Shown in pieces: positions 1,394-61,886 of a DNA stretch of 64,000 nt. The stretch is from Chrysomallon squamiferum (taxonomy: Eukaryota; Animalia; Mollusca), in contig CM022670.1 in NCBI GenBank assembly GCA_012295275.1, positions 22,320,001 through 22,384,000 on the forward strand. Reading direction: 5' to 3'. The notes under the pieces are model-generated. The model did not search any database and had not been told where the DNA came from. It saw only the letters and a program-made list of their open reading frames with translations. The position numbers were made by a program, and so were the translations under genes. Each line of letters starts with the position of its first letter. Position 1 is the first letter of the stretch.

Positions 1394-2457
<1,064 letters not shown>

Positions 2458-10457: not shown

Positions 10458-11728
10458 ATGCTTATTGCAAGTAATTACAAAATGGTGTTCCTGGTTCAGA
10501 AGTTTGGCACCTTAACATATAATTGTTGGCACCTCAAGAACATCTGTAGATCAGTGTTGAATATTTGTAAAAGAGGAAAGTCTTCAGATTCTTCACAAAC
10601 TGACTTCAGGTTGTATTTAGAGCAATGTGGAGGTGGCTCTGTGGATTTGGAGAAAAATAATGAAACTGGATTAGCAGTTATTACTTTGAACAATCCTGAA
10701 AAGCGAAATGCATTAACAGGTACCCACAGATATTTGAACTATTAATATTTAAACAACTTAATTTAGTAATTAAATCTAATAAATGAAATTAATCTATTTC
10801 CTCTCATAAATAGTTTTAACAAATAAAGAAATTTTTTTTTTTTTTTTTTTTTAAATGTGAAAAAATTCAGTTTACATGATTTTTCCTTTCTTAGACATAA
10901 TAGAGTTTAAATATATTATTTATCACTGGATTATCCCCTTTTACCAATACACTTCAGTTAAATAAAAATAGACATTTAATGAATGCTGCACAGTTAATTA
11001 TTTTGTTGCTGGTGAGTAAGTATATGCAGAATGTTTGATCTTTTGAAGGTAAAATGATGGTAGAGCTGTCAGACAGAATACATGAACTAGAGGAATGGGA
11101 ACAAGGAAAGGGTTTGGTGTTGCGAGGAGCAGCAGGTACTTTCTGTTCTGGTGCTGATCTTAGTCTTGTTCAGCAACTCGATAGTGGAAATGATGGATTC
11201 AAAATGGCAACTTTTATGCAAGATGTTCTGCTTCGCTGTCATCGTCTTCCTTTGATAAGTGTAGCTCTCATTGACGGAAGAGCTCTTGGTGGAGGAGCAG
11301 AAATGTGCTTGCCATGTGATTTCAGAATAATGACTGAGACAGCGAAAATCGGTTTTGTACAAATTAAGTTAAATATTACTCCAGGATTTGGAGCAGCCAC
11401 ATTTCTAACAAAACAACTTGGTCCAACAAAAGCATTAGAAATATTAAGTATGGGACAGATAATTGATGCAATTTCTGCTAAAGAAATGGGCATTGTACAT
11501 CATGTATTATCAAACAGTGGTGATGTTCTGCAACAGACTAAAGAATGGTTGCTAAGTAGACATTGCAAATATGATGCTACCGTAATTAGATCTCTGAAAC
11601 GTACTATTACTAATAGTGAAGTCTGTGATTATGAAGAATCATTAAAATTTGAAAAACAAATTTTTAAAATGATTTGGTTTGCACCTCAACATGTTAAGGC
11701 ATTAAGCCAAAAAATTAAACATGATTAA
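10458..11728 (+). CDS. ECHDC1: Ethylmalonyl-CoA decarboxylase (crotonase superfamily), ~313 aa, exons 10458-10719 and 11049-11728
   Basis: The phase-1 join gives ...TLNNPEKRNALTG|KMMVELSDRIHELEEWEQGKGLVLRGAAGTFCSGADL...GRALGGGAEMCLPCDFRIM...PGFGAATFL. The GGGSVDL, WxxGKGLVxRG and HxxAL C-terminal segments match ECHDC1. The start ATG (10458 vs 10482) is uncertain. Confidence 0.93.
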
Positions 11729-16411: not shown

Positions 16412-16645
16412 ATGATGCCTTTCTCTTTCATATCATCTAAGGACCCAGATGCAAATATCAAAAGACTAAAGATGCAGATTAAAACACTGAAGGTTCATGC
16501 ATCTATGAAAAGAATGAAATTATCACAAACACTTCCAGAGTTAATTGAGTATTGTGAAAACCATAAACAACATGATCCTCTTGTTGTACGTGACAAAAGT
16601 ATAAAAAATCCTTTTGTTGACCCAGTTAGATGTACAATAATATAA
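16412..16645 (+). CDS. G-protein gamma subunit, copy A1 (Ggamma30A/GNG13-like class), 77 aa, single coding exon
   Basis: GGL domain: LKMQIKTLKVHASMKRMKLSQTL...YCE...DPLV...NPF, with CaaX CTII*. Strong acceptor at 16390. Confidence 0.93.
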   Translation: MMPFSFISSKDPDANIKRLKMQIKTLKVHASMKRMKLSQTLPELIEYCENHKQHDPLVVRDKSIKNPFVDPVRCTII

Positions 16646-21935: not shown

Positions 21936-24900
21936 ATGGGTAAGTATTTTAAATAATTAATAATTTTTTTTTTTTTCCAACCCTTTTAATTTAGTATAAA
22001 TAATTTATATTTTGAAGATTATTTAAAATGGTAATACTGGCTTTACTACATAGTTGAACTTAAATGATATCGTTAAAGATAACGTTTGTTATATTTGTTA
22101 GAGAAATAGTTCACAGTGGCTAATAATTTATAATAAAAATTCACATGATTACTGACATAATGTAGAGCCATTAGGAATTGATTTTCCATATATTTATCAA
22201 AACAGCTGTAATAGTAAATGACAGGAAAAAATTAACACGTGAAATTTCCTTCACAATGAGTTTTTCAGATTTCATTACTCTTAAGTTGTAGAGTTATTTA
22301 ATTTTAATTTTAATTTTTTTTAAATATATATTTGCTTTTTGTTTTTGTATTTAAATTCAGAACTGACATTGGTTTGAGAATATTTAGTAATTACACTTAA
22401 ATATTTAAGAATTGTTTTAAATGTTTTTTTAAAAATAATTTTTATTTGACATGTACTGAGTAATTAAGTCATCAATTTAATATTTAATTGTTACACTAGT
22501 TATTTGGTGTAAAGATAATATGTAGATTATTTTTTTGTATTTGCACTGATGTGTTTGTGAAATTAAATACTCAGTCAGCATACTCAGATATTTTTATTAT
22601 TTTAATAATTTCTGATATTGAAATTTGAATACTTTAAAAAATCTAAACTTGATTTGGTCAAGCACAAATAATATTTTGTATCAACAGTTATGTACAAATG
22701 TACTGATAATTGAAGTTGTTATTTTAATACCACTGATATCCATGTTTGATCTTCATTGCAATTACATTCACTCCCTAATAAGTTTCATATGTGCAATATG
22801 AGCATATGATGTTGAATATTCTTACACCTGAAAACATTTGTTTATATTATTAGTATTATTAATTTATTATGTAATAGTTATTTTGTTCGATATTTATCAA
22901 GCTTATCTAATAATAGCTGTACTGTGTCAAAATTAATTAATTGCATGTTTATTAAAGTGTATCTGTGGTGATATGAAAAAATTGTCTAAATATATTCTGG
23001 CTACTTCCAAATTAAATTTTATTTGATCCTGCCATTCAGTGCTAGGTGCTGCTATTATAACAAAGAGGATGGACACATTTTCTCTTAAGTTTATTTTCCT
23101 TTGGTGTAAGACAAAATACAGTTACCACTGTACCAGTCTCCCATGTGTGATGTCTTGGCTCCAGTTGTGAAGGAGTTAAACAGCAGCATTAACATTTGTG
23201 TAACAGTATTTTGTTATTGCCATACTTACATCAATAAAGTAATAACATGCAACAATAAACATTATTATCTTATTAGGCAGTTTATTCCTACTGCCACATA
23301 TACACTTTAACATCTAGTGATTGACACAGATATGCTTAGTGACCAATTTTTTTTTAGTATGAATACAGCCAACAGGTCGAAATTTTCAGTTATTGCAGCA
23401 GTACATGATTAAATTTTTGTTTTGTTTCATATCATACCAGAATGTCAGTATGATTTGACAGTGAATATATTTGTTGTACATCATCATGGTAATCTTGATG
23501 CAATCGTTAGCTTGTTTAGAAATCTGTGACAAAAGCATTGTAACTTATAAAGCATGTCTTCTCTGTTAATATTTTGTACTAACCATTAATAATCATTTTG
23601 ATGAGCTTGAAATTTATCTTTTCATATAGGAACACAAGGGAATGCTGGTGAGAGATGGATGTCTATTAAGTAGAATTACACTAGTTCTTTATTAAGTGTA
23701 TAGACCCATTCAGTGCTGGATTGTTTATTTACAGTTTCTTACTTGGCATTAGATAATTTTTAAATTATTTTATTTAATTTTATATTTAATGATACCAGAT
23801 CATTATATTTTAAATGATTCATCAAAATTGGTATCTGAATAGTAAAAAAACAAAAAACAAATAGCAACAAAAAAAACAACAACAATCATATATATCTATA
23901 TATTAATGCTACATCTATTAAAACTGTTTTTATTTTTATTTTTTTAAACAAATCATTTAATTTGAACATAATTTCACAAAGTATGGTATAAGTCATCGCT
24001 GGATGTAATTTATTCTTTTTCATTTAGTATATTTTTTTTCAATCCTTTTTCCATATTTTTTTCCAAATATTTCAGAGGAAAAGAACCAGTACTGAATGGG
24101 TGTCTCTATATTAACTTTAGACTAATATTTCTTTGTGTTTCACTTATAGTTAGAAATCTTTTTTCTGCATAAATATATGAAATGTTGCAGTTGGCACTGT
24201 TTTTTTAACATTTGTGCACAAATTTTAGTAAAGAATAAAACAAAAAAAATTAAATGAAAATTTAATGAAAAGATAAAATAATCAGATTTGTTCAGACTTA
24301 AAATTTAAATAAATCTGCTTTCAGTATCTTTATATATCCATAATTTATTGTTTTTGAAATTCATTAACCAGACGTACGAATGCATCCAAGAGTGCCATGT
24401 TTCACATTGTTTTAAAATTCATTTTTCATTTGTTACTAAACTTCATTATACAAGGCCTCATCAGTATTTATTGCCATAAGTAGTACATGAACACACACTC
24501 ATACACACACCCACAGAAACAAAAAAAACAAACCCAATAACATGATTTTCCATTCCAACAAAATTTGTTCTTTCATTTTAAAATGTGGTGTTTTTAATTT
24601 CCTTGTATCTGGTGTTTGGTGAAATATATGTGTTATCTGTCTTGTATATATATATATACAGTAATACTTTCTTACTTGTATTTTCACTGATCTTCCAATA
24701 CAATTTTTATTCTTATTTCACAATACTTTTTTTTTTTTTTTTTTTCCATAATAGTACTTAGAATTTATAATAATGTTGGGTTAATTTTTTTATATTCAGT
24801 TAGTATCACAAAGGTAAATGTGACCACATATGTATATTTTCAGTTTTTTATTTGGTCTTGATTACTAACAAATATCTATTTATGGAAAAAGAAAAAATTA

Positions 24901-26440
24901 TAAATATTTTTCTTATACGAATTTCTGAATTCTAAACTCATTTTGCAGAAATAAGTAAATTTGGTGTCAGTTTATTTTTGAAAATACCAAGATTAGCATA
25001 TTTATTTTTTTAACATTGTTTTTGTTTCACTTGTCAAAATTTTACATAAATTGAAAAAGCATTTCTACAAATTTAAACTCTAAAACAGTAAAACATGTTC
25101 TCTTGTGGATTTTTGTGACAGCTTTGTTTACTTCTAGATATATCTAGTTTGCAGTTCAGCAGTTTAGAGTATGAGCATGGCTTTGCTATTTATTTAAAAA
25201 AAAAAATTTTAATGTTTTCAAATTGTTTTTGTTTTTTTGAATTAAATTTGACCTATTTTACCTCATCTTTGGTTTAGAAATTTGAACATACATTTTCATT
25301 TATCTTAGTTATTCTCTTTTAATTAATAACTGTTTTGCTTTATTTGTTGATAATCTGTTCTTAAGTCTGGCATTTAATTTATGTTTAATAGCTGTATTTC
25401 TTACTTGTGCATGCATGTCTTAACATTTTCTTTATTACATACTTATAGACTGGAGACTTTAAATGTGTGTCAGTTCACAGAGGAATTCTTGGAATTTTGG
25501 ATAAACAGGACCATCATGAAAACTTGTTTAATTTATTGTTAAAATTATTGTCTAAGTAATAATTATGCTTAAACCAACTTTAAAAACTATAACACTTTGC
25601 CAAAAAACAAAAAAAAAAATATATATATAAAAAAAAATAAATAAATAAATAAATATTAATAATACTTTAAGAAGTTAAAACATCTTGTTCTTAACTACAA
25701 GTACACCACCAAAATCAAATAAATTGTCATTGCACATAAGACTGTTGCACAACTCTCAAGATCTCTGTATCTAATGTTCTGCAAGAAACAAGTCCAGAGT
25801 TTTATAATAACATTTTGGACATTAAAGAATACCAGTGACAGTTTGCTTTTATGCCACTATTAGAATTAATGTATTAAGTTAAGAAATATATAAATGGAGG
25901 AGTTCACTAGTTTAAAAGATAACTGAAAGCACACTAGATACACCATTATAGTGGATGACCAGTGCAATTTTAACACTTGCTCAAGTTGTTATCGTGATTA
26001 CAAGAGTTTCTGGAAAATTAGTGGTGTAGTGCCTGCTTGTTTTTCTTTCCTGCAAAAATATTAATTAAATAATCTATTGCACTTTACTTTTCTTTTAACT
26101 CACTTTGTTTTTGTGATCTATTTCTTTCTGATGCAGAATTTTTTGGTGACAAAATATGAGCAAAACTGAATGATTTAAAAAAATCTGTGATTAAAACTAT
26201 TTTTCTTTCTCTGCAGCTGACATGCGCATGAACAAATTGCAGGAAGGTCTTCAGCAGCAGAGGCGACTGATTGAGCAGCTTCGTTGCGAGGCTCAGATCA
26301 CTCGGATGAGAGTGTCACAAGTCATTGAGGATATAGTCAAATACTGTGAAACCCACAGAGAGGAGGATGTACTTATAATTGGGTTTAACAAGCCCCAGGA
26401 GAATCCTTTCAAGGAGAAGGGTGGATGCACAATATTATAA
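21936..26440 (+). CDS. G-protein gamma subunit, copy B1 (Ggamma1-like): ATG-G at 21936-21939, optional microexon 23630-23647, main exon 26217-26440; 75 or 81 aa
   Basis: LQQQRRLIEQLRCEA...EEDVLIIGF...NPFKEKGGCTIL* resembles insect Ggamma1. tttcag|ACATTCAGTATGG|gtaagt joins in frame to ctgcag|CTGACATG, giving MADMR. The main exon is certain; the upstream exons are inferred from splice signals and paralog conservation. Confidence 0.92.
23630..23647 (+). other. 18-nt phase-1 microexon GAACACAAGGGAATGCTG of G-gamma B1
   Basis: cttttcatatag|...|gtgaga, TACTAAC at 23577-23583, length divisible by 3, no stop codon, identical in paralog B2. Confidence 0.8.
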
Positions 26441-29435: not shown

Positions 29436-32387
29436 TATTTTATTTTATGTAGAATTTTTTAAATCATTATTATTATTTTTGCATTATAATTAATATTGTT
29501 TCTCTTGTTTTTTTCCTGCCAGTAGTTTTGTTTTTCTTTTCTGACGCTGTATGTAAACAGAGATGCCTATTACCGTAATAGATATAAACTCGATAGACGG
29601 TTTGATATTACTAAAACTAGCTCGACATAGATCTGGCTGTTTTTCGCCAACGCTGCCAGACATTATTCTGCGCACTACGGGAGTAAATCATCTCGTTTGA
29701 TGATTGTTTGGACAAAAATCGCCAGTCATTTAGTGACCAACACCCAATCTGTCAGACACATAATCATGTGTGAGTTTTTATGTAAACCAATGAAGAGATT
29801 GACTCTTAATCGAGAAACTGCTATAGTATGCAGCATAACAAAATGTCAAATTGCACTGTATTTAAAAATTATTTTTATTTTTGCAGTTCAAAACTACTTT
29901 AACGTTATCTATGAACCCATAACTCCTGAACTGAATATGCCATTGCAATTTTTGCTATTTGAAGTATTTCATATTTATAGAACTTCTCACAGTTACTGTA
30001 AATGGAAAAATGATGTTTGTGCGGCTTTTATTTTTGGAAAAGTATTCAGTTTGTTACTTTCAAATCATTTTCAATTTGAAAACATAAAACATTTTAGTAA
30101 AAATATAATAATAAAAACATACAGATTTCCAAAAAATCTTTGCTGCTCACAAATTTCATTTACAAGATTTTATTTAGTATCTACTAGTCATGGTAGTAGC
30201 ATGGCTGCCTGTGTCATTGTTGGACAAACTGGTTGATTTGACAAGCAAAAATGTAGCAAAATATTGAGTAAAAACATTTGATAACAAGGTGTAGATTTAA
30301 CCGATAAAAATCAGTTATTTAAAAAAAAAAATTGTATTGATTCATTATCATTAGGAAATAATAAGCATTACTCTTTTACTAAAAATAATTTTATATGTTT
30401 AATGTGATGAAGAAAAATATTACCAAAACAAATTTTAATAATAATAATAATAATGACAATAAAATTTAATGCCACTGCAAAATGACTCATTACTGTCCTA
30501 TATAATTCTTTTTACAATCATTTCTGCTACAAAGTTGCTTAAAAGCATTTGATGGTTGGTTTACTCAAGAGCCTGATCTAGTGCAAGAGATGATTACATC
30601 AGACAATTTAGAGCAGTAAATGCAGGTGATTTTTGTCCAGCAGTTAAGAAAAGAGGGGTGCTATGGGTTTTCTGCCCTTAACAGCATGTATTTATGGTGT
30701 GTAAGTGAGCATTTGTCTGTGAACTCAAAATTGATAACCTAAGTGAGTGTTACATCAGACGTTAACTTTGACTTTAAAAGATTCTGATTCGTGTAACTAC
30801 TGCATTGATGAAAACATACCAAGATCTTTGCTGGGCTAGTATAAAATGAAATTTTTTAAAGCTAAATGAAAATTAACTTCAGCCGGAAAATGTTGTTGAA
30901 AGTTTGGTACGTTGCCATTAGATATTAGATACCCCATGTAATATGTGTTACATTACTTTATTAAAACTGAAAAAAATATGAATAGTGTGGACATCAAATG
31001 GTTGGATTTATCAAAAAACATAACAAAAAATAAAAATACATGGCAGGATAGAACATAATTTTGTGCATGATGTTTTTTATATCAGTAGTAAAGATCTTTA
31101 GACATCTGTCTATCTATAATACTATATCTGGATGGAAGATCTCTTAGAATGCTTTTAATTAAAATAACATCTAAGAGTTTTTGTATAATTAGTTGAAAAA
31201 TATACTGGGTCATGTAAAACATCTGAGTAGCTGATACACCTCCATTCCAACAAATAGAAGATTTATTACATGTGATTTTCACTATGACGTTTCACTAATG
31301 ACATGCATGTATTGGTGTTATAGCTAAATTTTAATTTAAATTAAATATTGTGCCAAATATTATGATTTCCTGTTAAGTTGTTAGTTTTGTTTATTTTCAT
31401 AGGTGGTGACAAAGCTAACGGAACAAGGGCAGACACTGCAGTATTGATATCTGCATACTTTTTCTGTTTTCAAGGTATATATATATATATGTGTGTGTGT
31501 GTATATGTAACATATATATAAGTAAAATATTCACAATTCGTGTTTATTACAATGGTGCAAACTTTTATTTTGGACTGGCACTTGAATTTAGTGTTAACAA
31601 AGTTACACTAACCCATATCTTGTTTTCTGTTGTCTGTCTTTGATATAGGTTAATGTTTTACAGCTTTATTTAGACATCCAAATCAAAATTTATAGCCAAA
31701 AATATTTTTAAAATTTAATGTAATAGATCAAAATTTTAATCAGATTTTCACATTTCGTAGTACATATTTTGATTATGAAAACTAATGGACTCCTATTTAA
31801 AATTCATTTAATAAAAATCTTTCTGAATGTAATTTTTAATTTTAATTTTTATTTATTACTAACAACACAAGTGTTTGCTGAAAAACTTTTGTAAATTACA
31901 TACTCTTTCTACAGTATCTTCAGCATGCACCAGAAATCACAAGTGTTTATTTTGAATGCATGTTTGATATGAACAATTACTAGACCATGTGAGTTATAAT
32001 GTTAGTAGACAGTCATGTCAAACTCACGAGTTTGTTTGGAGGTGAATATAAATGGTATGTTAACTATAAAAATAATTAACTGATGAAACAAATATTTGTA
32101 ATGGCATGTAAGCATAATTACTCACCTTCACTTTAAAAGGTAAGAATTGGGATATTTTCTTTAATTACTGAAATGCAAAATTTTTCTATGTCATAAAACT
32201 AACCAGAAGTTTTAGCTCACAGCAATCTAACACATGCATGCTCCATCATAAAAAGCCTTCAAAAAAAAAATTAACTTTCACAATTAATGCAAGACTCAAG
32301 TTTTGCATTACCTTAATGGAAAATGATAATGTAATATAATAATGATACTGTTGTTTTATGCAGGATTTACTGCTTTATTGTTCCATC

Positions 32388-32621
32388 ATGCCATACCCTT
32401 TCACCTCTGCAAGGGATTCTGATGCAAATGCGAAAAAGCTAAAGATGCAGATTCAAACTCTTAGGGTTCATGCATCGATGAAAAGAGAGAATTTATCAAG
32501 AACTCTTCAGGAAATGATTGAATATTGTGAGTCCCACAAGCAACATGACCCTTTGGTCACACGAGACAAAAATTTTGAAAACCCATATAAAGACACCAAA
32601 TTTAAATGTACTATATTATAA
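32388..32621 (+). CDS. G-protein gamma subunit, copy A2 (Ggamma30A/GNG13-like class), 77 aa
   Basis: MPYPFTSARDSDANAKKLKMQIQTLRVHASMKRENLSRTL...DPLV...NPY...CTIL*. About 50/77 residues are identical to A1 by hand alignment. The acceptor at 32363 makes 32388 the likely start. Confidence 0.93.
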   Translation: MPYPFTSARDSDANAKKLKMQIQTLRVHASMKRENLSRTLQEMIEYCESHKQHDPLVTRDKNFENPYKDTKFKCTIL

Positions 32622-40801: not shown

Positions 40802-43800
40802 ATGGGTGAGTTTTATAAAAAGTGTAATTTTGTTTTTCTTGTTACTTCCTAGCATAGTCCATCCTGTGTATGTTTTTCACTTCATTATATTAACAACAAC
40901 TGCACTAAATTTTTGAACAAATTACTGCTAATTGTACTACTAACAAACTCGAAAGCAACAGTAATAACAACAACAATGAAATAAATAAATAAGGTCTGAA
41001 AACATGTTTGATTATAATATTAGTGTACAGTTATCTCCATAAATTATGTTAATATGACTTTTTTTACCATGGTTTTAAGCTGGATGACCTTTTTCTAAAT
41101 AATAAATTTTAATTAATTTTAATAGAATTTCTGTATTGTAATATAATGTTATTAAAATCAAAATGAATTAGATTGTGTGTAATATATTATGATGAAATAA
41201 AATATGATATCATTTCAAGATCAGTCTGTGAGCCAGACTCACTATAGCTTGTTGAAAAAATAAACATTAAAATTATTTGTTTTCCATTAACAGTATACAT
41301 AACTGTGAAATAAATATTAAGCTTTAAAATGTATTTTGAACTGGATAGTGACAGGCATTTTGCTTTTAGTTATGTGAAAACATCATAGCTATGATAAAAA
41401 AATTAAAAAAAAAAAAAAAAAAAAATTATAAATAATGATAATAATAATAATATTACTACTACTACTACTACTACTACTAACAACACATAACCAATAAATA
41501 CTTAAAATAGGAATTTAAAAAAAAAAAAATCCTTTTGTCATTGCAACAGTTAACAGATGTTCAAGTAATGGCCAGTTGTATATAAATGATTTTTAAAAAC
41601 CTGTATTTTATGCATGCTGGAATGTAATTAATTATGTTCAACATCATGGTAATCTTGATGCAGTCGTCAGCTTGAATAGAAGTCGGTGACAAGCATTGTG
41701 CTCTATTTGTTACAAATACAACATCTGTGTTCAAACCATTAAACTGGGCATGAACACTTTAAATATTAACTGAATAACAATTCAATTTTTAACTTCAGAA
41801 GCATGTTTTCTCTGTAAATATTTTGTACTAACCATTAATAACCATTTTGATGAGCTTGAAATTTATCTTTTCATATAGGAACACAAGGGAATGCTGGTGA
41901 GAGATGGATGTCTATTAAGTAGAATTACACTAGTTCTTTATTAAGTGTATATACCCATTCAGTGCTGGATTGTTTTCAAACTGCCTATCTTGTTGCAGTA
42001 AATAGTAGTGAAAAGTCATGAAAAATCTCGAACATTTATTATTTTGTAAAATAAAATATAATAAAATTTTAAAATCTGTAGCCCTCTGCCCCAGAATGAT
42101 CCCTCAAATTAAAAACAAAGAGAGAAATTCAGTAATATGAACAAAATAGGCCTGTTGGTATATTTCTGGGTTTCAAAAAAAAAAAAAAAAATTAAAACAA
42201 CATTTAAGTAAAAATAAAAATTCATAATTAACTGGTCCCTGTAGTTGTAGTTTTTTTGAAATTTTCTTCATTTTGAATTTGCTGAAACAAAATTTACCTA
42301 TTTCTTTCTTCTAATTTTTAAAATTTTAAAATTATAATTTAAATTACATCTATGAATGTATATTTTGAAGTAACTTTCATGCCTTACATCTTTTTTGTTT
42401 CAAATTTATCTGTTTGTCTCTCTATCTTTCTGTCTATCTACCGATCTAATTGTCTGTCTTTCTGTCTATCTGTCCATATTGAAAATTGTATGACTTTAAA
42501 AAATAAAAAATGTTGGTTATGAAAAATATCTGGCATAGATTAACCAGCACTGAATGGGTGTCTCTATATTAATTTTAGACTAATATTTCTTTGTGTCTCA
42601 CATATAGTTAGAAATCTTCTTTCTGCATAGATATATGAATTGTTACACCTTTTTAAGCAAACAAAACTGTGCACATGACTTGACTTGGACAAAATGTCTT
42701 TTTTATACCGTTTAAATCACAACCTCTAAAGTGTGTAATAACTTTTTAACTGCTTAATAAATAGCAAAAAAGAAAACTTTTTATGTTTATCATGTCAGAC
42801 TAGTTAAATATTTTTAAAGAATAAAAAGAAAACTTACCAGTGTTATTTCAAGCAATTATTTCAATGCAATACGAATGCATCAAAGAATGCCATGATTACA
42901 CACTTATAAAAAAATTTATTTTTCATTCTTCATTGAATATCAGTATGTAATGACTTAAAGAAAGATTCTTTAGTATTCCCAAACAGTTCAAAATTAGTAA
43001 AATTGCATTTAACATTTTTAATTTATATTTTTATTTTTATTTTTTTTTTAAATTTTAGTTTAAACTTTCCATTCTGTTCCTTTCATTTTGCTTTCATGTT
43101 AAAATCAGGATAATCATGAAAAATACACATTTAAAATTTATGGAACAGGTTCATTAAATTTATGTATGTTGTCATACATTGTGTGTGTGTCATGAAATAA
43201 TAATATTTCTAAGTCCACAACACATTCATATTATAGGGGTAATTACAGAATACTGATAAATGAGGAGAAACAGCAGCAATATTTTGCATTTTAACAAGCA
43301 GCATAAAGCAGTTTTGGGTTAACTGGTTTCACAGAGCTTTGTATGATAATTTCAATTTGTTTGGTATTATGTTGTATGAATTCTTGTGGACCTAATTTAT
43401 TGATATTGACATGTATGAGCATGGCTTTGTTACTTAACACTCACAGTTCTGCTTTCTTTCTTTTCTCTATTTTATGTCTTTAATATGTCTCTGATGAGTT
43501 GTGTAAATAATATATTGTGTGTGTGTGTGTGTGTACATATGTATCTGTGTGTATATATATGTATGTATGTGTGTGTGTGCACATTATTGACCTTTATTAT
43601 CACCAGCAGCATGACAAAAAACATCTCTTCTTCACAACAGTTGACAAACATCTTGATTTGTCTTACTCTATTTAATAATTATAAACATTTGAAACATCAC
43701 ATTTCACTCTAGTCCCTTTTTTCTGAAAAACACTAAATTATTAAGCATCTTGTTTCAAAAACACACCAAGGAAAGCACAAATTCACCAAAATTAGAGAAA

Positions 43801-44146
43801 TGTAGTATACAGTTATTGCTCGAGCATCTGTACATTCAACCTCATCTATAGCTACTGAAAGAAATTACCAGATTCCTTTTTTTTTTTTTTTTTTTTTTTT
43901 TTCTTTTTTTTTTTTTTTTCAGCTGACATGCGCATGAACAAATTGCAGGAAGGTCTTCAACAGCAGAGACGACTGATTGAGCAGCTTCGTTGCGAGGCTC
44001 AGATCACTCGGATGAGAGTGTCACAAGTCATTGAGGATATAGTCAAATACTGTGACACCCATAGAGAGGAGGATGTACTTATAACTGGCTTTAACAAGCC
44101 CCAGGAGAATCCTTTCAAGGAGAAGGGTGGATGCACAATATTATAA
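40802..44146 (+). CDS. G-protein gamma subunit, copy B2 (Ggamma1-like): ATG-G at 40802-40805, optional microexon 41879-41896, main exon 43923-44146
   Basis: The main exon differs from B1 at 2 residues. tacag|ATTTCAGCAAAATGG|gtgagt joins in frame to the poly-T acceptor cag|CTGACATG. A candidate UTR exon lies at 39901-39979. Confidence 0.92.
41879..41896 (+). other. 18-nt phase-1 microexon of G-gamma B2
   Basis: Same sequence and splice sites as 23630-23647; TACTAAC at 41826-41832. Confidence 0.8.
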
Positions 44147-44478: not shown

Positions 44479-46360
44479 TTAAAAAAATTTCAATCAAATG
44501 TAATTGAAGTAATTTAAGATTTGTTTAATGTGTTTCATCTTAGAATCTCTTCATATACTAAGAACTAAAATGTGTTGTATAAAAGCATTTATGAACATTG
44601 TAATACTTAACTTTTATCTTTTTCTTTATAAATCACTTATTTTATGTACATGTAAACAATTTCCCATTTAAAAGTAAAGCTTGTTTAAAAATAACTACCA
44701 TATTGAAGTTACATAAAAAAAGAAAGATTTCATATTTGACAATTTTAACAATATCATGCACATGTTACATAAATAAAATTTGAAAATATGGAAATGTTAA
44801 CAACAGATGTTTGTTTCAATGAAGGCTATTTCAACATGTAACAACCAAATCAAATATTAATGTCAAACAATTTATGTGAATGAACAATTAATGGCATACC
44901 AGTATAAAGAAAATTTCAGCTTTTTGAATGTCATACAATTATTTCATTTTATCATTTATATCGTGTAATAAAAACTTCAGTTTTCAAGTTAAAAAAATAT
45001 TCGGTTTTTTTAAATATATTTTAATTTTATATGAAAAAAATGTCATGCCTTTGGTATCTAAAAAAATAATTTTAAAAACCCAGTATTTTATGGGAAGATC
45101 ATTTTTTGTTCATTGATCTGTAGCTGTTTTATTTATTATTATTAGACTTTTTGTGATATACACGGGTGAACTGAAATTTAACAGGTAGCAAGTTTTGAGA
45201 CAAATTCATTTTATTTGTACAAATCAGCAGTGGTTTTTATTGTCTGATTTTTTGTACTTACATCATTTTCATCTAATACACCATTAATAATCTTTCCTTT
45301 GAATACTACATGTTCACTTTTTAGATTAATTTTATGTAGTATAAATGTGTAGTTTAATTAAAATAATCTGAATGTGAATGTTGTTTTGTTTCCTTATATC
45401 CACACAACATAATGGCCCTCTAATGGAGAATGATCATATATCACACTAAAGCTTAACAATTACTACAATATATCTTTATTATTTCTACGAAGCTAGTTTG
45501 AGTGTAAATTGTTGTTGTTGCCTGAAGAAACTCTCAATAAAGAATAGTTTTAAAATGGAAAAATGAAGATGATTTTGGAGATGGACAAGTGTTAATGATC
45601 AAAAGAGCAAAGCACATATATCACAAACAGTTCTTTGAACATTTTAAAATTGTTATTGTTATTGTTATTATGATTTTTTTGTTATTATTATTTTTATTTA
45701 TTTGTGATATACATAATTCATTAATCTTCTAATCTAAATATTTTTATATTAAACCCACATAACCAACTGCTGTGCATTTATTTCTGTTGCAGAGTTGTTA
45801 TAAATATGATTTAGAACCACGATTTATTCAGTTTCACGAAGATAAAAAAATAAATATATATATTGCATTGAATAAAAAATCCAATAGAACAAAGGCATAC
45901 ATTTTCAGAAATAATGCACTAGAAACAAATGTTATCATTATCATAAACCATGAATTCAAGACTGTAACCTTTAACTGAACCAGGTATCAGTATGTATCTG
46001 TTATTTAAATTCATAGTGGCAAATTCAGGTGGTGATAACTGATAAGTGTTTAAATACATAATAGCTAAGCTATATGAAAAAAGTGTCAGACTGACCTAAA
46101 CACAGTGCAGAAAAATGTTACTAAAGTTATTCATAGTACTTAATTAAAATGCATTGATTATTTGGTGTCATTGGCTATTAAATATCAAATATATGGTATT
46201 CTGACACTTCTAAATTGGAAAAAAATTGATTTTTCTTTTTTTTTGTTTTTTTTTGCTACAGAAATAAACACATTTAATGGAGTTTTTGATAAGGTATCAC
46301 AGGATGCTGGGTGAAACTCAAATAGTAGATACCACTTCTTGAATAGTTTCTAATAATGTG

Positions 46361-47090
46361 CATTAAACCATACTGTCAAATATACTGAGCCTAAGTGTGT
46401 GTGTGTGTTCATTAAACCATACTGTCAAATATACCGAGCCTAAGTGTGTGTGTGTGTTCATTAAACCATACTGTCAAATATACTGAGCCTAAGTGTGTGT
46501 GTGTGTTCATTAAACCATACTGTCAAATATACGGAGCCTAAGTGTGTGTGTGTGTTCATTAAACCATACTGTCAAATATACGGAGCCTAAGTGTGTGTGT
46601 GTGTGTGTTCATTAAACCATACTGTCAAATATTAAACCATACTGTCAAATATAGCCCTAAGTGTGTGTGTGTGTTCATTAAACCATACTGTCAAATATAT
46701 TGAGCCTAAGTGTGTGTGTGTACATTAAACCATACTGTCAAATATATTGAGTGTTCATTAAACCATACTGTGTGTGTGTGTGTGTACATTAAACCATACT
46801 GTCAAATATATTGAGCCTAAGTGTGTGTGTGTGTGTTCATTAAACCATACTGTCAAATATATTGAGCCTAAGTGTGTGTGTGTACATTAAACCATACTGT
46901 CAAATATATTGAGCCTAAGTGTGTGTGTGTGTGTACATTAAACCATACTGTCAAATATATTGAGCCTAAGTGTGTGTGTATGTATGTACATTAAACCATA
47001 CTGTCAAATGTACTGAGCCTAAGTGTGTGTGCTTGCATATACATTAAACCATACCTTCAATTGTACTGAGCCTAAGTCTGTGTGTGTGTT
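46361..47090. repeat. Minisatellite, ~15-16 units of ~47-53 bp: CATTAAACCATACTGTCAAATATA(C/T)TGAGCCTAAG + (TG)n
   Basis: Directly visible tandem units with a constant core and a variable TG tract; a few truncated units lie in the middle. Confidence 0.97.
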
Positions 47091-48432: not shown

Positions 48433-48975
48433 AAACTAAGAAACGCCTAGAGACCAACTGCAATTAGGCAGATCGATCATGCAATGTTTTGTCTGCAGAA
48501 CCTCAGTATACTGAATTCGGTTAACTATATTACTGAAAGAGGAGCATCTGTTAATAATACCTTAAACACAGTGAAGACATTTTTTTTTTTTAGTTGATTT
48601 CATTTACCATTTCTGTGTCAGGGATTCGCTGTTATTAAAGCCATTTGATTTGTTCCTAGGAAAGTGATTTTATGAGTATCTTATATAGTGAGTAATTAGT
48701 GAGTTCCGTACGGTATGTATGATCGTATCACATCATTTGTTCCACCCCCGTTACGCTTATTTGCATGGTCTACAGGTTTTACCACTCTGTATCAAAAGCA
48801 GGTCCTCAGAATATATGGAGACTAAAATGAATTTATAAACACTAAACGCAAGTATATTTTTAAACATAAGAATTTATTATATTTTGAAAAATATAAAAAA
48901 AAAAAAAAAAAAACAATAAAATATTTTTTTACAAATCAGTCATACTAATAGTTTTCTTTCTGGCATCAGTTAAGT

Positions 48976-49647
48976 CTATCCAATAACCTTGGGTGCACCG
49001 GCAGCGTACCTTCGTCCTGAAATTGATAGGTAAAGAGTCAGACGAACAGAAATACAGACTTACAAACATCCTAATGTCCAGATATATAGGAAAAACGTCT
49101 GAACGGAAAATAAAGTCAATTTACAAAAAAAAAAACAGATATATGGATAGGCAGGCTGACGGACTACTGGCAAATCGAATAAATAGTATTTGTTTAGATA
49201 ATCTGAAAGGACTGATGAATAAAGAGAGACAAGAACAAAGATAGAGAAATTTATATATGGATATGAAGGTAAATAAAGAGAAAGAATAAAAGACTGAGGC
49301 AGACAGAAATAGATAGATTAAATTTAAAGCAGATTAACGCAAACTATGTTAATTAATAAAATAGACTCACCGTAATCGAAGAAGTCATCAGACATAGCCA
49401 TAAGTCCAAGTCCGGCCATTCCTCCCATGCCCATCATACCCATACCCATTCCGTAACCCATGCCCATACCATAACCCATTCCTCCGTAGCCGTAACCTCC
49501 GTAACCGTAACCTCCGTAACCTCCGTACATGCAACCTCCGAACATGCAAGGTCTGCGCATCATAGGCATCATAGGAGGCATCATGAGAGTTTGAGAGATC
49601 TGGACCATTGTGACAAGAAGTGTGAGGGCGAAGACTAATTTGAGCAT
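48976..49647 (-). CDS. Secreted Gly/Met/Tyr-rich protein, paralog 1, 105 aa, coding exons 49647-49371 and 49016-48976
   Basis: Signal peptide MLKLVFALTLLVTMVQISQT, GGY/GM repeats, then G|gtgagt to tttcag|GA giving ...SDDFFDYGRRYAAGAPKVIG*. A UTR exon ends at 49970 and a TATA box lies at about 50040-50045. The structure is mirrored in paralog 2. Confidence 0.9.
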
Positions 49648-50029
49648 GATGATGTCTGTGAAGAATAGTATAAAAAAAAAAAATAATAATAAAACAGATG
49701 AATCAATGTATGAAGACTCATGGTATATTAATATTAAAAGTTTAATATAATCGAAGTTTATCAAGGGCTACTTTTGTTTTGACAAATGGCCGTGTTATTG
49801 CAGTTTTCTATATATCGTCAGAATCCATACTTCATTATTCCAAATTAAGATTATTAAATTTTATCAGATAAGAATAAACGCAAAATAATAATAATAATAA
49901 GAAGAAGAAGAACAACAACAACAACAACAAACCTCTACATTCTAAATTAAAATAAACATAAAAGCGTACCTTTCTTTGTTGTTTTGGAGTTACTAAGAAG
50001 CTGTGAGTTGGTTTGATTTGGAACTGTTT

Positions 50030-50120
50030 CTCCGGCCTCTTTATACCCTAACTTCTAGATTCGCTGATAAATGAGTTGTCTGTTGAAATGTCGTTCATTT
50101 GTCAAATAAACTAGATTACT
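50030..50120 (-). promoter_or_regulatory. TATA promoter of Gly/Met-rich paralog 1
   Basis: Minus-strand TAGGGTATAAAG. Upstream blocks (TTCTAGA, AATGA, ATGTCGTTC, TAAACT on +) are shared with 54820-54900. Confidence 0.7.
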
Positions 50121-52055
50121 GCATGTCATGTTATGTAAGAAAACAGGCTGCGTACATGTTCAACTGTGGCGTCACAACAACGAATTTACGTCCTAGTCTC
50201 TGAATGCAGTACATTTAGTCTGTAAATTCCTGTGATGTAATGCAATTCATGTTTGACGATGTAATCTTTGTTTTACAAATTTGTCTGTCCTATAAAGATG
50301 GTATGCATGATTTCTGGATACATACACATATCCAAATATATTAATGCATATTATACATAAACACACATACACACAAGTACATACTGACACGTAGACAGAT
50401 ACATTCATACGTGCATACATGCATACTTCATTCATACAAAATACGACAACAAAACAGTAATGATAATGACTAAACGACTATTAATTTTTGTGTATATGTA
50501 ATTTAAAAAAAAAATAATAATAATCACAGTAGCTAAATAATCGTATATATCTAAATATCTCTTAATTGTTAAAGTATTAGAGATTTCTTAGATATATACA
50601 TTTTGACAAGTTCTTTAGCTCACTTAGTTTCTTTCTTTATCATATATGCATTTCTTTGTATAATAACAAGGATATTAAAACTTTGAAAGGGCATTAAGAA
50701 ATATATTTATATATTAGCAAATACTTATATTCGTCTTAAGTTCGTTTATGTATTAAAATGGTATGTAGGTGAATGCCAATAACGTTTCAAGAACTACACT
50801 TAAGTTTTATTTCTTGTAGACGTGCATATCGCTATAATGCTGGAGAGGCAAGATTTATTAGAATCAAAACTTATTAAACAATTTCTGTTTGCATACATTA
50901 CGAATGTATTAAATTTACTACAACTGTTTGCACTTTCGAAATACGGCGGGTATTCATCTCTTTTTCTAAATGTTGATAATTCCATTTGTTTTGTGAAAGC
51001 CAATTTAAATACGAGTATATACAAAAAATTAAACATTGTTAATTTCTAAATATTCTTAGTAATCCTAATTATAAATGATTCCATTATTAATACAGTGTTT
51101 CAGTATAATCCTCTGTGGTCTGGGCTGTTTCCACGAAAGAAAGCATGCCGATATCAGAGAAGCAGTCTTGGATTTAAAGTCGTAAAGTCCTATGCCAGTG
51201 TTTCTTAGTGTTATTCACCTTCAAGTTTTATCACAAATTATCATTCTCTCTGTCGTTCCATTCACCCAATAATAATTTAATTCACTTTTCAATCTTGTTT
51301 TAAGATACACTAACATGAGCTATGAATAGCTGATCAAATACTCTTTTGTGAATATTAACATTAAATAAAGATTAAAATGAAATTATTATTATTAGTTTTT
51401 TTTTCATGAATTTTAATTAATTATATATTTAATTTTTGATCTGCGTAACTTCATAATCAGTGATCATATGTGCAATGTCTCGGTCCTGTTCAAGGCTTAC
51501 GTGGGTCGGGATCTGATCAAGACAAGATGGCTGCTTACACACTTTAGTATTTTTGTCGTGTTTCTTTCTTTTTCACTCTTCATCTCCACCTTCTACTCCT
51601 ACTCTTTCTTGTAAGTAATTTTATTCGCCATTAACATCCGTTTTCATTCTTAGATGGAACATAGAGGCATATACTAATCTTCTAGAAAATTCTTTTATTA
51701 TAATTTGATGGACGTATATTATGCATACTTTCAAGTTATATTTTAATTGTTTAATCTTAATTAATACAACAAAACAATACTGTTTAAGATACAAAATGAT
51801 AATTTGGAAGTATACAGAATTTCTATAGATCTTTTCTACTCTATATTAACATTTTAAGCTTTTTCTTTCTTTCTTTCTTTTTATTTGCACATTTTAGAAA
51901 ATTCATAAATTAAAATTGGTATAATTAAGAAAAGGTATTTTAATGTTCCTTTAACGGACTGTTTATAGCAAATATATTTAAAACAAAACAAACAACCAAA
52001 ACATATTCAAACTGTTTATTTACCATTAATACTCTACACACACGATTGGTTTTTC

Positions 52056-52094
52056 ATAATAATAATAATAATAGTAATAGTAATAATAATAGTA

Positions 52095-52147
<53 letters not shown>

Positions 52148-52239
52148 TAATAATAACAATAAGTCAATAGTAATAAAATAAAATAAAATAATAATATAAT
52201 AAATAAATAAATAAAATAAAAATAAATAATAAACAAATA

Positions 52240-52272
<33 letters not shown>

Positions 52273-52325
52273 TAATTAATTAATTAATTAATTAATTAAA
52301 TTGATATAAAATAAAATAAAATAAA
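52056..52325. repeat. (AAT)n/(AAAT)n/(AATT)n low-complexity tract
   Basis: Direct inspection. Confidence 0.9.
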
Positions 52326-52807
52326 ACCCGGAACATGTGAAACTTGGGGTTTATTATTAATTACATCATTAGTGTTTGATTGCTGATTTAGATATTAAAA
52401 GACCATTTTTAAAACGGTTGTCATTTTAAAAATAACATATAAATTGTTCTTATTTAAGAGCCATATTGTTTTGATATATAACTTACGTAGGCGAAAACTA
52501 AACTAATACGCATTGATCTACTGTTCTCGAGAGTTTTAAAAATAAAACAGTTAATTTCATTTAGTTTCTGTATTATTTAGCATTGCAGGATAAATGAAAT
52601 AACTGGGTTCTCTGCCAAACACACGCTCACTTTCGTTTTTGGTAATATCTTATAATGACAACGAATGAACTGGCCGGTGTAAAATGACTGAATATTTCAA
52701 ATATATGATGACTTATTCGATTGAATTAAAGACAACATTCACTTATATTCCAGCAAAACACATAAACAGAACATTATATGTTTTGGTTTTGTTACTTGTA
52801 ACATAAT

Positions 52808-52900
52808 TGTATGTATGTATGTATGTATGTATGTATGTATGTATGTATGTATGTATGTATGTATGTATGTATGTGTGTATGTATGTATGCATGTATGTAT
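52808..52900. repeat. (TATG)n microsatellite
   Basis: Direct inspection; it explains the MYVC-repeat ORFs. Confidence 0.95.
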
Positions 52901-53078
52901 GTATCTTTCACATTTGTAAGAGTATATATATATGTATGTGTATGTATGTCAGTAGGGATATGTATGAGTGTGTGTGTTTATGTGTGTGTGTGTATTCGTG
53001 TGTAAACATATAGAGAGCGACAGAAAGAAAGAGAGTGATCCTTGTGCACGCATTTATAATTTATAAGATAAATAAACA

Positions 53079-53124
<46 letters not shown>

Positions 53125-53139
53125 AAGTAAATAACTAAC

Positions 53140-53170
<31 letters not shown>

Positions 53171-53655
53171 AAGTAATAAATTAATTAACTTAATTTAATT
53201 TGCATGATAAACAAATAAGACTGTAGACCACTGTCCAGGACGAGGATCCCTTCATCTGAAAAGTTTCGATGTCCGAAGTGATGATATTTTACAACTTTTG
53301 GATTGTTTTGTACGCTCAAACTTGTTAAAAAAAAAAAAATGTTATATTTAAAAAAAAAAAAAAAAAAAAAACAACAACCAAAAACACACACACATACAAT
53401 ACTGATGGAATCCCAACCTCGTTCTTAAATGCAAGGTACTTGTTTGATTCAAAGTATATCAGCCCAGTATAATAATGATATGAGACTATTTTGCCTTTAA
53501 GCTTATTTATTAAAAATGTAAACAAAATTAACTGATCAACACATTTCTTTTTAAATAAACAATTTATTACATTTAAAAAATCACCAAAAGATTTTTTTTC
53601 AAAACAGTCAATATATAAATATATATTTTTTTTTTCTTTCTAACATCAATAACTT

Positions 53656-54337
53656 CTATCCAACAATTTTGGGTGCACCGCTGGCTAGTCTTCTTCCTGA
53701 AATTGATAAAATATATAGGTAAATAGACGAAGAGACACACAAAGGCACGGACATGCTAAGAGATCACTAGAGAGAAAGACTGAAAAAAAAAAAAAAAAAG
53801 AAAAGTTTACAGATGGATGTAGGTAGAACGACAGATTGGCAAATTAAATAAATTGTATTTGATTTGATAATCAAAAAAAAAAAAGGGTTGATGATTAAAA
53901 AGAGAGACAAGAAAAAAGATAGAGAAATTTATATATAAATACGAAGGATTAGAAAGAGAAAGAGTAAGAATCTGAGGTAGAAACAGAGAGATTAAATTCA
54001 AAAGCAGATTAACGCAAACTATGTTAATTAATAAAATAGACTCACCGTAATCGAATAAGTCATCAGACATCGCCAAAAGTCCAAGTCCGGCCATTCCTCC
54101 CATGCCCATCATACCCATGCCCATTCCGTAACCCCCCATGCCCATGCCCATGCCCATTCTTCCGTAGCCGTAACCTCCGTAACCTCCGTATCCTCCAAAT
54201 CCTCCGTATCCTCCGTACATGCAACGTCCGTACATACAAGGTCTGCGCATCATCGGCATCATTGGCATTCCGTAGCCAGCTTGCGAGATCTGGACCATTG
54301 TGACTAGAAGTGCGAGGGCGAAGACTAGTTTGAGCAT
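53656..54337 (-). CDS. Secreted Gly/Met/Tyr-rich protein, paralog 2, 110 aa, coding exons 54337-54046 and 53696-53656
   Basis: Signal peptide MLKLVFALALLVTMVQISQA and GGY/GM repeats. The spliced C-terminus is ...SDDLFDYGRRLASGAPKIVG*. A UTR exon ends at 54760 (CAA|gtaagt). Confidence 0.9.
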
Positions 54338-54490
54338 GATGATGTCTGTGAAGAATAACAAGACAATAAATAACGTGGCAAAACTTTTAATGCGACCTAT
54401 GCTGCTTTGCAGTCAGAGATTACTCTTGGAATTAATAGTCAGTAAATTCGATCTATTTTGTTAATCTGAAATAAAACAAATTTCTCTTTT

Positions 54491-54553
<63 letters not shown>

Positions 54554-54814
54554 TTTCTTTTTATTTATTTATTATTATAATTATTATTCAGGAATGACAA
54601 AATATTAAATAATTATAAAGTCGAAATAAACGAATTAACAAGAACAATTATGTACACAGCAGTATTATGCATAACGTTTAAATTACTATGAAATATTATT
54701 TCGTATTTACTGTATTTCAAGAGATCACTTTAGTAAAATATAAAAGCAAAGTCACTTACTTGAGAGAGTTGTTGAGAACTGAAGTCAGTTTGATTCTGTT
54801 CTCTGTCGTCCAAA

Positions 54815-54905
54815 CCGTGTCTTTATATACCCTATTTTCTAGACATTCTAACTAATGATGTGTCCATCCAGATGTCGTTCCCTTGACATGTAAACTGATG
54901 TACAA
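54815..54905 (-). promoter_or_regulatory. TATA promoter of Gly/Met-rich paralog 2
   Basis: Minus-strand TAGGGTATATAAAG at about 54821-54835, alignable with the paralog 1 promoter. Confidence 0.7.
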
Positions 54906-55400
54906 CAAAGACATTACGAAATAAAACAAAGAACAGTCAGACATTTGATAAATGCGATAGAGAAGAAGCAGTTACATCACATTCATTAGGTAATATTTCA
55001 TTTTCAGAGGCTTTAAAACACAAGACAGATATTCAAAAATAAAAAGTCTGTTTACTCTCCGATCTCCCCCAAAAATAACCGAAACGAACCAAACAAACAA
55101 AAACAACAAAATAATAATATTAAATAAATAAATAAATAAAAGATAAATATATAAAAAAAAAAAGAGAAAAACTGTAAGAAAAACAATACATCGCAAAAAC
55201 AGTCATACTAAATTTCCTTTGAGCTTTTTGCATTTTGTTTTTAAATCAAAAACGTGATTATCTAAGTTATCATTGTTATGTTGTATGTTATTCACTCTCT
55301 CTAGCGCACATATACACTGTCATAAAAACACATACATTCTCACAAACACACTCACATATATACACTAGCACATACAAAAGCAGCACACACGCACACATAA

Positions 55401-55486
55401 TATTATGAAGGCCCTTTTTTTGAGGTCCCTGGTTCAGCGGCACCATTTGCACAAAAAAGATTCTTGGTAAATCCAAATATGGAAAT
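55401..55486 (+). repeat. ~85-bp dispersed repeat, copy 1
   Basis: TATTATGAAGGCCC...GGTCCCTGGTTCAGCGGCACCATTTGCACAAAAAAG.TTCTTGGT..TCCA.ATATGGAAA recurs at 56091-56175. Confidence 0.9.
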
Positions 55487-55650
<164 letters not shown>

Positions 55651-56090
55651 TCACAAAGCCGGATTAAGATCCTTAGAGGTCCTAAGCACAAAAACAATTT
55701 GTATGAAACTCAAATATAAACAACAATAAATCCTAAAATAAAATTTATTTTTCGAAAGGAAACAAAACTTATAGTGAGCTGGAAAATAATGTTTATTTTT
55801 GTGTATTTCCACTATATTTATATTTGCTAAGTTTTCTCCTGTTTTTTTAAATGCTTAAGTGTTTGGTCAAATTCTCCAGACATATTTAGTTATTATTTTA
55901 ATATATATCATTAACTCCTCATAATATTTATTATTATTATTTTTGTTATTGCAGTGTGTATGTATGTGTTTGTATATATGTGTGTATGGTGTATGTGTGT
56001 ATATATGTATGTGTGTGTGTGTATGTATGTATGTGTATGTATATATGTATGTATGTATATGTATATATATATATTTGCATTTATTATGGA

Positions 56091-56175
56091 TATTATGAAG
56101 GCCCCTGTTTGTGGTCCCTGGTTCAGCGGCACCATTTGCACAAAAAAGGTTCTTGGTTATTCCAGATATGGAAAA
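56091..56175 (+). repeat. ~85-bp dispersed repeat, copy 2
   Basis: Direct-orientation copy of 55401-55486. Confidence 0.9.

Positions 56176-56749: not shown

Positions 56750-61886
<5,137 letters not shown>

Follow-up and report, generated by a model that had tools for sequence, protein, structure and literature searches.

Two similar tandem paralogues, here called copy A and copy B, lie 4.7 kb apart on the minus strand of a 64,000-nucleotide stretch of the Chrysomallon squamiferum (scaly-foot snail) genome (assembly GCA_012295275.1, contig CM022670.1, forward-strand positions 22,320,001 to 22,384,000; hereafter the window). Each reads as a complete predicted three-exon gene. On DNA evidence the genes are real and the splice prediction, with its putative junctions, is correct. 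We tentatively favour a reading in which the products are secreted and disordered (both features being predicted) structural matrix proteins of an organic covering, rich in Gly, Met, and Tyr and probably trimmed at a Gly-Arg-Arg (GRR) site close to the C-terminus. A matrix role overall, whether the proteins are cleaved or uncleaved, is reasonably likely. The pair is unnamed, lineage-restricted, and already in the published annotation as one fused model. An earlier sequence-only reading of this DNA had not recognised the family; it does lack a name and, in our searches, a homologue, but the locus itself is not new.

Gene structure of the two copies

All positions below are those of the window, and all gene features are on the minus strand. 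The predicted splice product of copy A (49647-49371 joined to 49016-48976) is 105 amino acids (aa) long, and that of copy B (54337-54046 joined to 53696-53656) is 110 aa long. Both predicted proteins end in DY-G-R-R followed by a 10-residue tail whose last residue is Gly, with GAPK(V/I)(I/V)G as the shared C-terminal sequence. The coordinates, the junctions 49371>49016 and 54046>53696, and the translations proposed by the sequence-only reading were all reproduced at the DNA level. The same holds for the Gly codon split at the exon 2/exon 3 junction (G|GA) and for the differing Arg codons of the GRR site, which are CGA AGG in one copy and AGA AGA in the other. That reading had also warned of a false tail on the open reading frame (ORF) track, and the ORFs read without splicing do continue into low-complexity intron sequence.

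In copy A, a TATA box (50040..50045) aligns with the promoter block of copy B, and no ATG occurs in the 90 nt downstream of this motif. A predicted non-coding exon 1 (49970..50015, 5' end approximate) has its putative donor, AAG|GTACGC, at 49969, and intron 1, in the 5' untranslated region (UTR), spans 49656..49969 and closes with the acceptor TTCTTCACAG, common to both copies. Exon 2 (49371..49655, ATG at 49647) encodes, in order, a signal peptide, a Met/Pro head with RRP and two Cys, GGY repeats, GM repeats, a hydrophobic stretch, and an acidic SDDFFDY, and ends with the first base of the split Gly codon. The predicted intron 2 (49017..49370, 354 nt) is a phase-1 GT-AG intron (GTGAGT...TTTCAG) compatible with the end of the published gene model. 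The coding part of exon 3 (48976..49016) supplies (G)RR, YAAGAPKVI, the terminal Gly, and the stop codon, and AATAAA follows 97 nt after the stop (48873..48878).

Copy B repeats this plan. Its TATA box lies at 54822..54829, its predicted non-coding exon 1 at 54760..54800 (5' end approximate, putative donor CAA|GTAAGT at 54759), and its 5' UTR intron 1 at 54346..54759. Exon 2 (54046..54345, ATG at 54337) carries the modules of copy A and ends in SDDLFDY plus the first base of Gly. A predicted phase-1 GT-AG intron 2 of 349 nt (53697..54045) precedes the coding part of exon 3 (53656..53696), which reads (G)RR, LASGAPKIV, Gly, and stop. AATAAA lies 87 nt after the stop (53563..53568), with a second at 53506-53511.

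A TATA block lies upstream in each copy and is followed ~60-70 nt downstream by a donor; the acceptor, identical in the two, sits 8 nt before the ATG. The TATA box, the non-coding first exon, and this acceptor go beyond what the sequence-only reading described. The exons have a G+C content of 49-56%, compared with 27.5% for the whole window. Within 1.5 kb there are nine pyrimidine-rich YAG acceptor candidates for intron 2 in copy A and seven in copy B, and the chosen one alone gives equivalent peptides in both. Contigs from four sequencing runs covering copy A (48700-50400) contain no joint across either intron, the runs being DNA-like or of uncertain kind and uninformative on splicing. Cover from a second organism was considered as a sign of exon 3 conservation and rejected since, judged by depth bins and loose ends, it falls on a microsatellite-like intron segment of ~35 nt.

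The pair in the published annotation

The pair matches the C. squamiferum gene model CsqKR_Scaf65_31.24 on chr6 (PMC7142155, Supplementary Data 3 and source data), catalogued there as one novel, low-complexity gene. A consensus of the two exon-2 proteins, built with an alphabetical tie rule, equals the 2 x 93-aa repeat unit of the model apart from where a single gap falls, which identifies the same locus and indicates that the model fuses copies B and A. Because each copy has its own TATA box, first exon, signal peptide, stop codon, and poly(A) signal, we read the locus as two genes and not one fused gene. The printed repeat unit ends in -GI, the ending that the tie rule predicts if copy A is spliced to give Gly-Arg; intron retention would give -GE. 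The model's printed end thus fits the predicted splice and not intron retention, with the caveat that seven other AG sites within 1.5 kb are also compatible and that the choice was made by a gene predictor. The available text and tables of PMC7142155 mention no function or processing for this model. In the open literature we found no description of the pair beyond these supplementary rows, subscription papers lying outside that coverage.

Predicted protein properties

Hydropathy and an AlphaFold helix at residues 2-20 set the signal peptide at 20 residues and support the secretion proposed by the sequence-only reading. After its predicted removal, the body of copy A is 72 aa (7.6 kDa) and that of copy B 77 aa (8.05 kDa), each followed beyond the GRR site by a 9-aa tail peptide. 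The bodies consist of 33-36% Gly, 23-26% Met, and 12-13% Tyr with two Cys, and their side-chain net charge is -1 (A) and +1 (B). An RR inside the body precedes Pro. The precursors have no Trp and two Lys each. Without GRR and tail, the computed isoelectric point (pI) falls from 8.6 to 4.4 in copy A and from 9.3 to 8.0 in copy B, values calculated for free-acid ends that amidation would raise somewhat. Apart from the signal helix, the AlphaFold model is mostly coil, with a mean predicted local distance difference test (pLDDT) score of 51 and 59 of 97 residues below 50; this model, built from a two-sequence alignment, is weak evidence of disorder. Pfam returned no family for either exon-2 protein. 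A predicted signal peptide without a folded domain, and Gly-rich repeats with cross-linkable Tyr, are both hallmarks of the secreted Gly-rich matrix proteins of molluscs.

There are 26-29 sulfur-bearing residues per 100 in the bodies. Together with the vent habitat, this density would suit Met-rich proteins that are secreted to scavenge Cu(I)/Ag(I), oxidants, or vent-fluid sulfur and bear no load. The MxM and MxxM spacing found in these proteins resembles that of Met-rich Cu(I) sites, which also speaks for scavenging. We nevertheless think this role improbable. The gene is not scale-enriched, and its ID is absent from the file of genes differing between iron-rich and iron-poor vent fields (PMC7142155); moreover, Met-rich matrix proteins are also described from shallow-water molluscs, in the available portions of PMC4094399 and PMC9999432.

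Constraint on the body and the tail

For the splice, the copies do not count as two separate lines of evidence: exon 2 is 93% identical between them and the first 43 bases of intron 2 are 100% identical, perhaps owing to gene conversion or to recent duplication of the 5' portion. In the coding part of exon 3, 11 of 41 bases differ. Three gap-free blocks of exon 2 contain eight synonymous changes over 39 sites and five nonsynonymous changes over 156 sites, and a coding role of exon 2 under selection is well supported by this comparison. The per-site ratio of nonsynonymous to synonymous change (pN/pS) is ~0.53 in exon 3 versus 0.11-0.23 in the same three blocks, all from small counts, and within the gene the tail seems to be under the weakest constraint.

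This low constraint argues against a bioactive nonapeptide. The sequence-only reading had each precursor yielding a Gly/Met-rich peptide of ~72-77 aa and an amidated 9-aa peptide; the sizes hold, but the pN/pS of the tail makes an active role for the smaller product doubtful. A neuropeptide precursor, whose active product would be either the nonapeptide in amidated form or the FDY-amide end, is very unlikely, even though the signal peptide, dibasic site, and terminal Gly are formal precursor features in mollusc peptidomics (PMC5996578, in part). The peptide is single-copy and lies in the gene's least conserved part, and the precursor is mostly low-complexity repeat. In the scallop LASGLVamide family, as far as the available text of that source goes, repeated peptides end in A-N/S-G-L-V/I-amide (PMC5996578), whereas the pair has a single tail with a different C-terminus; the LASG likeness is at the wrong end and is absent from copy A.

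The Gly-Arg-Arg site and the amidation machinery

A Gly-dibasic site downstream of the predicted signal peptide is present in both copies, conditional on the predicted splice, and a GRR cleavage site is plausible. The Arg codon pair has changed synonymously between the copies, while four of the 10 following residues have changed. The snail expresses suitable enzymes in tissues that form hard parts. A neuroendocrine convertase is mantle-enriched 8.9-fold, and PAL1 is enriched 2.2-fold in mantle and likewise 2.2-fold in scale epithelium (PMC7142155). PHM appears in three of five shell-proteome samples, with expression highest in mantle (313 vs 56-107), and tyrosinases stand in the same proteome list (PMC11871041, in part). 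Four novel genes of similar composition were looked up from the repeat table; mantle enrichment of 17-70-fold is recorded for three of them, and the fourth is unlisted (PMC7142155). In Cepaea, Gly-rich genes are co-expressed with peroxidase, according to the available part of PMC7894901. On chr8, novel genes rich in Gly, Tyr, and Met are clustered on Scaf135_4 and show strong mantle enrichment, up to 135-fold (PMC7142155).

On the favoured reading, signal peptidase would take off ~20 residues, after which a convertase would cleave behind the RR of GRR; the internal RR would be spared because Pro comes next. A carboxypeptidase would then strip the RR, and PHM and PAL would leave a Tyr-amide. 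Removal of the basic 13-residue end would lower the computed pI, favouring assembly, after which tyrosinase, peroxidase, or disulfides would cross-link the proteins through Tyr and the two Cys. Most likely the nonapeptide would be a discarded pro-tail, serving as a solubility or sorting pro-piece. As guesses, the producing tissue could be glands of the foot or operculum, or an unsampled stage. Secreted Gly/Met and Gly/Tyr matrix proteins have molluscan precedents in Lottia GMP (PMC4094399), abductin (PMC9999432), and the shematrins and KRMPs (PMC3896809), each source being available in part.

Several observations weigh against this reading. Firstly, the signal itself is modest. When 11 random substitutions were placed in exon 3 under neutrality with the open frame kept, the Gly-dibasic site survived in 24% of simulations, together with the terminal Gly in 12%, and at least nine of 13 residues stayed unchanged in ~7%. 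When the post-signal residues were shuffled, a Gly-dibasic site plus terminal Gly arose in 2.2% (A) and 5.1% (B) of cases, or in 0.5-1% with the site restricted to the last 20 residues, a restriction chosen post hoc. The GRR amidation signal appears to exceed chance only modestly. For convertases, RR is less favoured than KR, as is Leu after the site, the residue found in copy B. Secondly, the model ID occurs, among 13 supplementary files, only in the novel-gene and repeat tables, and the gene is off the mantle-, scale epithelium-, gill-, and oesophageal gland-enriched lists, among which there is no foot list (PMC7142155). A motif look-up in the proteome tables, which carry other gene IDs, gave no match. 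The link of the pair to the mantle machinery is circumstantial because none of the tissue-enriched lists includes the gene, and the convertase enrichment could come from nerve cells in the mantle. Finally, Pfam, profile, index-free, and N-terminal searches found no homology to named matrix families.

The convertase, carboxypeptidase, and amidation signal claimed by the sequence-only reading is therefore a mixed case: formally correct, with the enzymes expressed in mantle, and statistically weak (2.2% and 5.1% in shuffles, 12-24% under neutrality). Prohormone-style processing is possible; the enzymes in the snail's mantle make it more credible, and the sequence itself gives modest evidence. The idea that the site is special for being splice-created does not stand, since G|G splice sites usually yield Gly at a phase-1 junction, where it is expected. 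Arg close to Tyr disfavours sulfation, and Tyr sulfation in the precursor is doubtful because two Arg lie within five residues of the Tyr.

Comparison with known Gly-rich proteins

The same statistics bear on a structural protein that is never cleaved or amidated, in which GRR(Y/L) would be a short basic C-terminal patch like the RRKY and RKKKY ends of KRMPs and shematrins. We consider this possible but rather unlikely. The signal with its terminal Gly, selected after the fact, appears in 2-5% of shuffles, and neutral retention amounts to 12-24%. The Pinctada shematrins and KRMPs, like the pair, are small and secreted and combine GGY-type repeats with a short basic C-terminal motif (PMC3896809, in part). 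However, the basic pair lies 10 residues before the end and is not terminal, and Tyr follows RR in copy A only. The proteins end in GAPK(V/I)(I/V)G and not in the terminal RKKKY/RRKY signature, they lack the Lys/Trp-rich domain that follows the signal in KRMPs, and they have much more Met and no detectable homology to these families. Both Arg codons have changed synonymously whereas four of the next 10 residues have been replaced, and amidating enzymes occur in the snail's hard-part tissues (PMC7142155; PMC11871041, in part), which further speaks against an uncleaved protein.

Scallop hinge abductin and Lottia GMP (B3A0R1) resemble the pair in being secreted, Gly/Met-rich, and disordered with two Cys near the N-terminus, and abductin is of similar size (~110-120 aa) to the predicted proteins (PMC9999432, PMC4094399, both in part). 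The pair lacks the abductin GGFGGMGGGX repeat and contains 33-36% Gly versus 58% in abductin (PMC9999432). It has far more Tyr than abductin or GMP, and is near-neutral compared with a pI of 11.2 for GMP (PMC4094399). The GRR-tail arrangement is not described for either protein in the available portions of these two sources.

Another alternative, toward which the sequence-only reading leaned in citing acanthoscurrin, is that amidated Gly-rich peptides act at a mucosal surface in defence or in the control of symbionts, like myticalins or acanthoscurrins; we judge it unlikely. The resemblance to the myticalins of Mytilus is one of gene plan: three exons, a UTR-only exon 1 (predicted here), a phase-1 second intron, tandem genes, and the order signal, core, Gly-dibasic site, and extension, with amidation at that site likewise a prediction in myticalins (PMC5577615, PMC12294457, both in part). 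Amidated Gly-rich antimicrobial peptides do exist; acanthoscurrins, ctenidins, and serrulin are Gly-rich, C-terminally amidated peptides of 4-10 kDa (PMC6784228, in part), traits in which the predicted bodies would resemble them. Charge separates the pair from both groups. Myticalin cores have a pI >11, >10% Arg, and an anionic extension of 35-75 aa (PMC5577615), while the cores here are neither cationic nor Pro/Arg-rich (pI 4.4 and 8.0) and the tail is short (9-10 aa) and basic. Acanthoscurrins, ctenidins, and serrulin are cationic haemocyte peptides (PMC6784228); the pair is near-neutral (side-chain net -1 and +1) and Met-rich with an acidic-aromatic end, and the acanthoscurrin analogy drawn earlier fails on this point. 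In addition, the dibasic site lies in exon 2 of myticalins but in exon 3 here, and the gene is off the gill-enriched list (PMC7142155).

Homologue searches and genomic neighbourhood

Homologues were sought in several collections. A profile search gave 14 matches at E 0.2-9 among 7973 scored candidates, and the two inspected were matches of GGY composition. An index-free search of 1.84 billion representatives returned one match, a 730-aa repeat protein aligned over a GGY stretch only, and the N-terminal 42 residues as query returned no candidate. In JGI metagenomes, none of 584 pattern matches was confirmed; the ESM Atlas held no usable match for copy B, and exact look-up found none of nine window proteins in the protein collection. 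A single match among PDB sequences, at E 0.13, was disregarded. Low complexity weakens all these negative results, which do not prove that the gene is missing from relatives.

Elsewhere in the window, the plus strand carries four G-protein gamma (GGL) genes, each in a single ORF and falling into two alternating types (16412-16645, 26222-26440, 32358-32621, 43928-44146). Tandem segmental duplication is suggested by the 95% identity between 26197-26440 and 43903-44146. An enoyl-CoA hydratase-family gene resembling ethylmalonyl-CoA decarboxylase (ECHDC1) lies at 10458-11728 (+), with its last 224 codons in one ORF, and is closest to the Gigantopelta aegis ethylmalonyl-CoA decarboxylase (68% identical). 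An exon matching Skp1/POZ, which by eye resembles elongin-C, is found at 2146-2385 (-), and exons of a glyoxalase-domain gene, GLOD5-like by eye, at 59959-61886 (+) offer a possible synteny anchor. A minisatellite of ~14 copies (46357-47090) has units of 49-51 nt with a variable TG tract. Short duplicated non-coding blocks of 85-96% identity occur at 55400-55485 and 56090-56174 and at 23475-24189 and 41635-42647. One sequencing-run contig departs from copy A at 49616. If its loose letters are adjacent, they extend the frame into a hydrophobic signal-peptide end that differs, which hints at an additional gene with the same first 11 codons outside the window.

Implications for the scaly-foot snail

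At a minimum, the fused scaly-foot snail model is corrected into two short secreted proteins. Trypsin proteomics would easily overlook them because the bodies contain only two to four basic residues. If trimming and amidation do not occur, the pair would join the ordinary lineage-specific Gly-rich secreted proteins that are numerous in molluscs. In a more ambitious form, which is speculative and less probable than trimming itself, part of the organic armour would consist of structural proteins that mature through the prohormone enzymes (neuroendocrine convertase, carboxypeptidase, PHM, and PAL). Loss of a basic, itself amidated tail would switch the charge and so set off the assembly of a matrix rich in sulfur and capped by Tyr-amide. 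If trimming and amidation are true, they would explain the amidating enzyme in the shell proteome and the mantle-enriched neuroendocrine convertase. The pair would then be the first predicted substrates of the amidating enzymes in the snail's mantle and shell, and C-terminal amidation would join the known maturation routes of molluscan matrix proteins.

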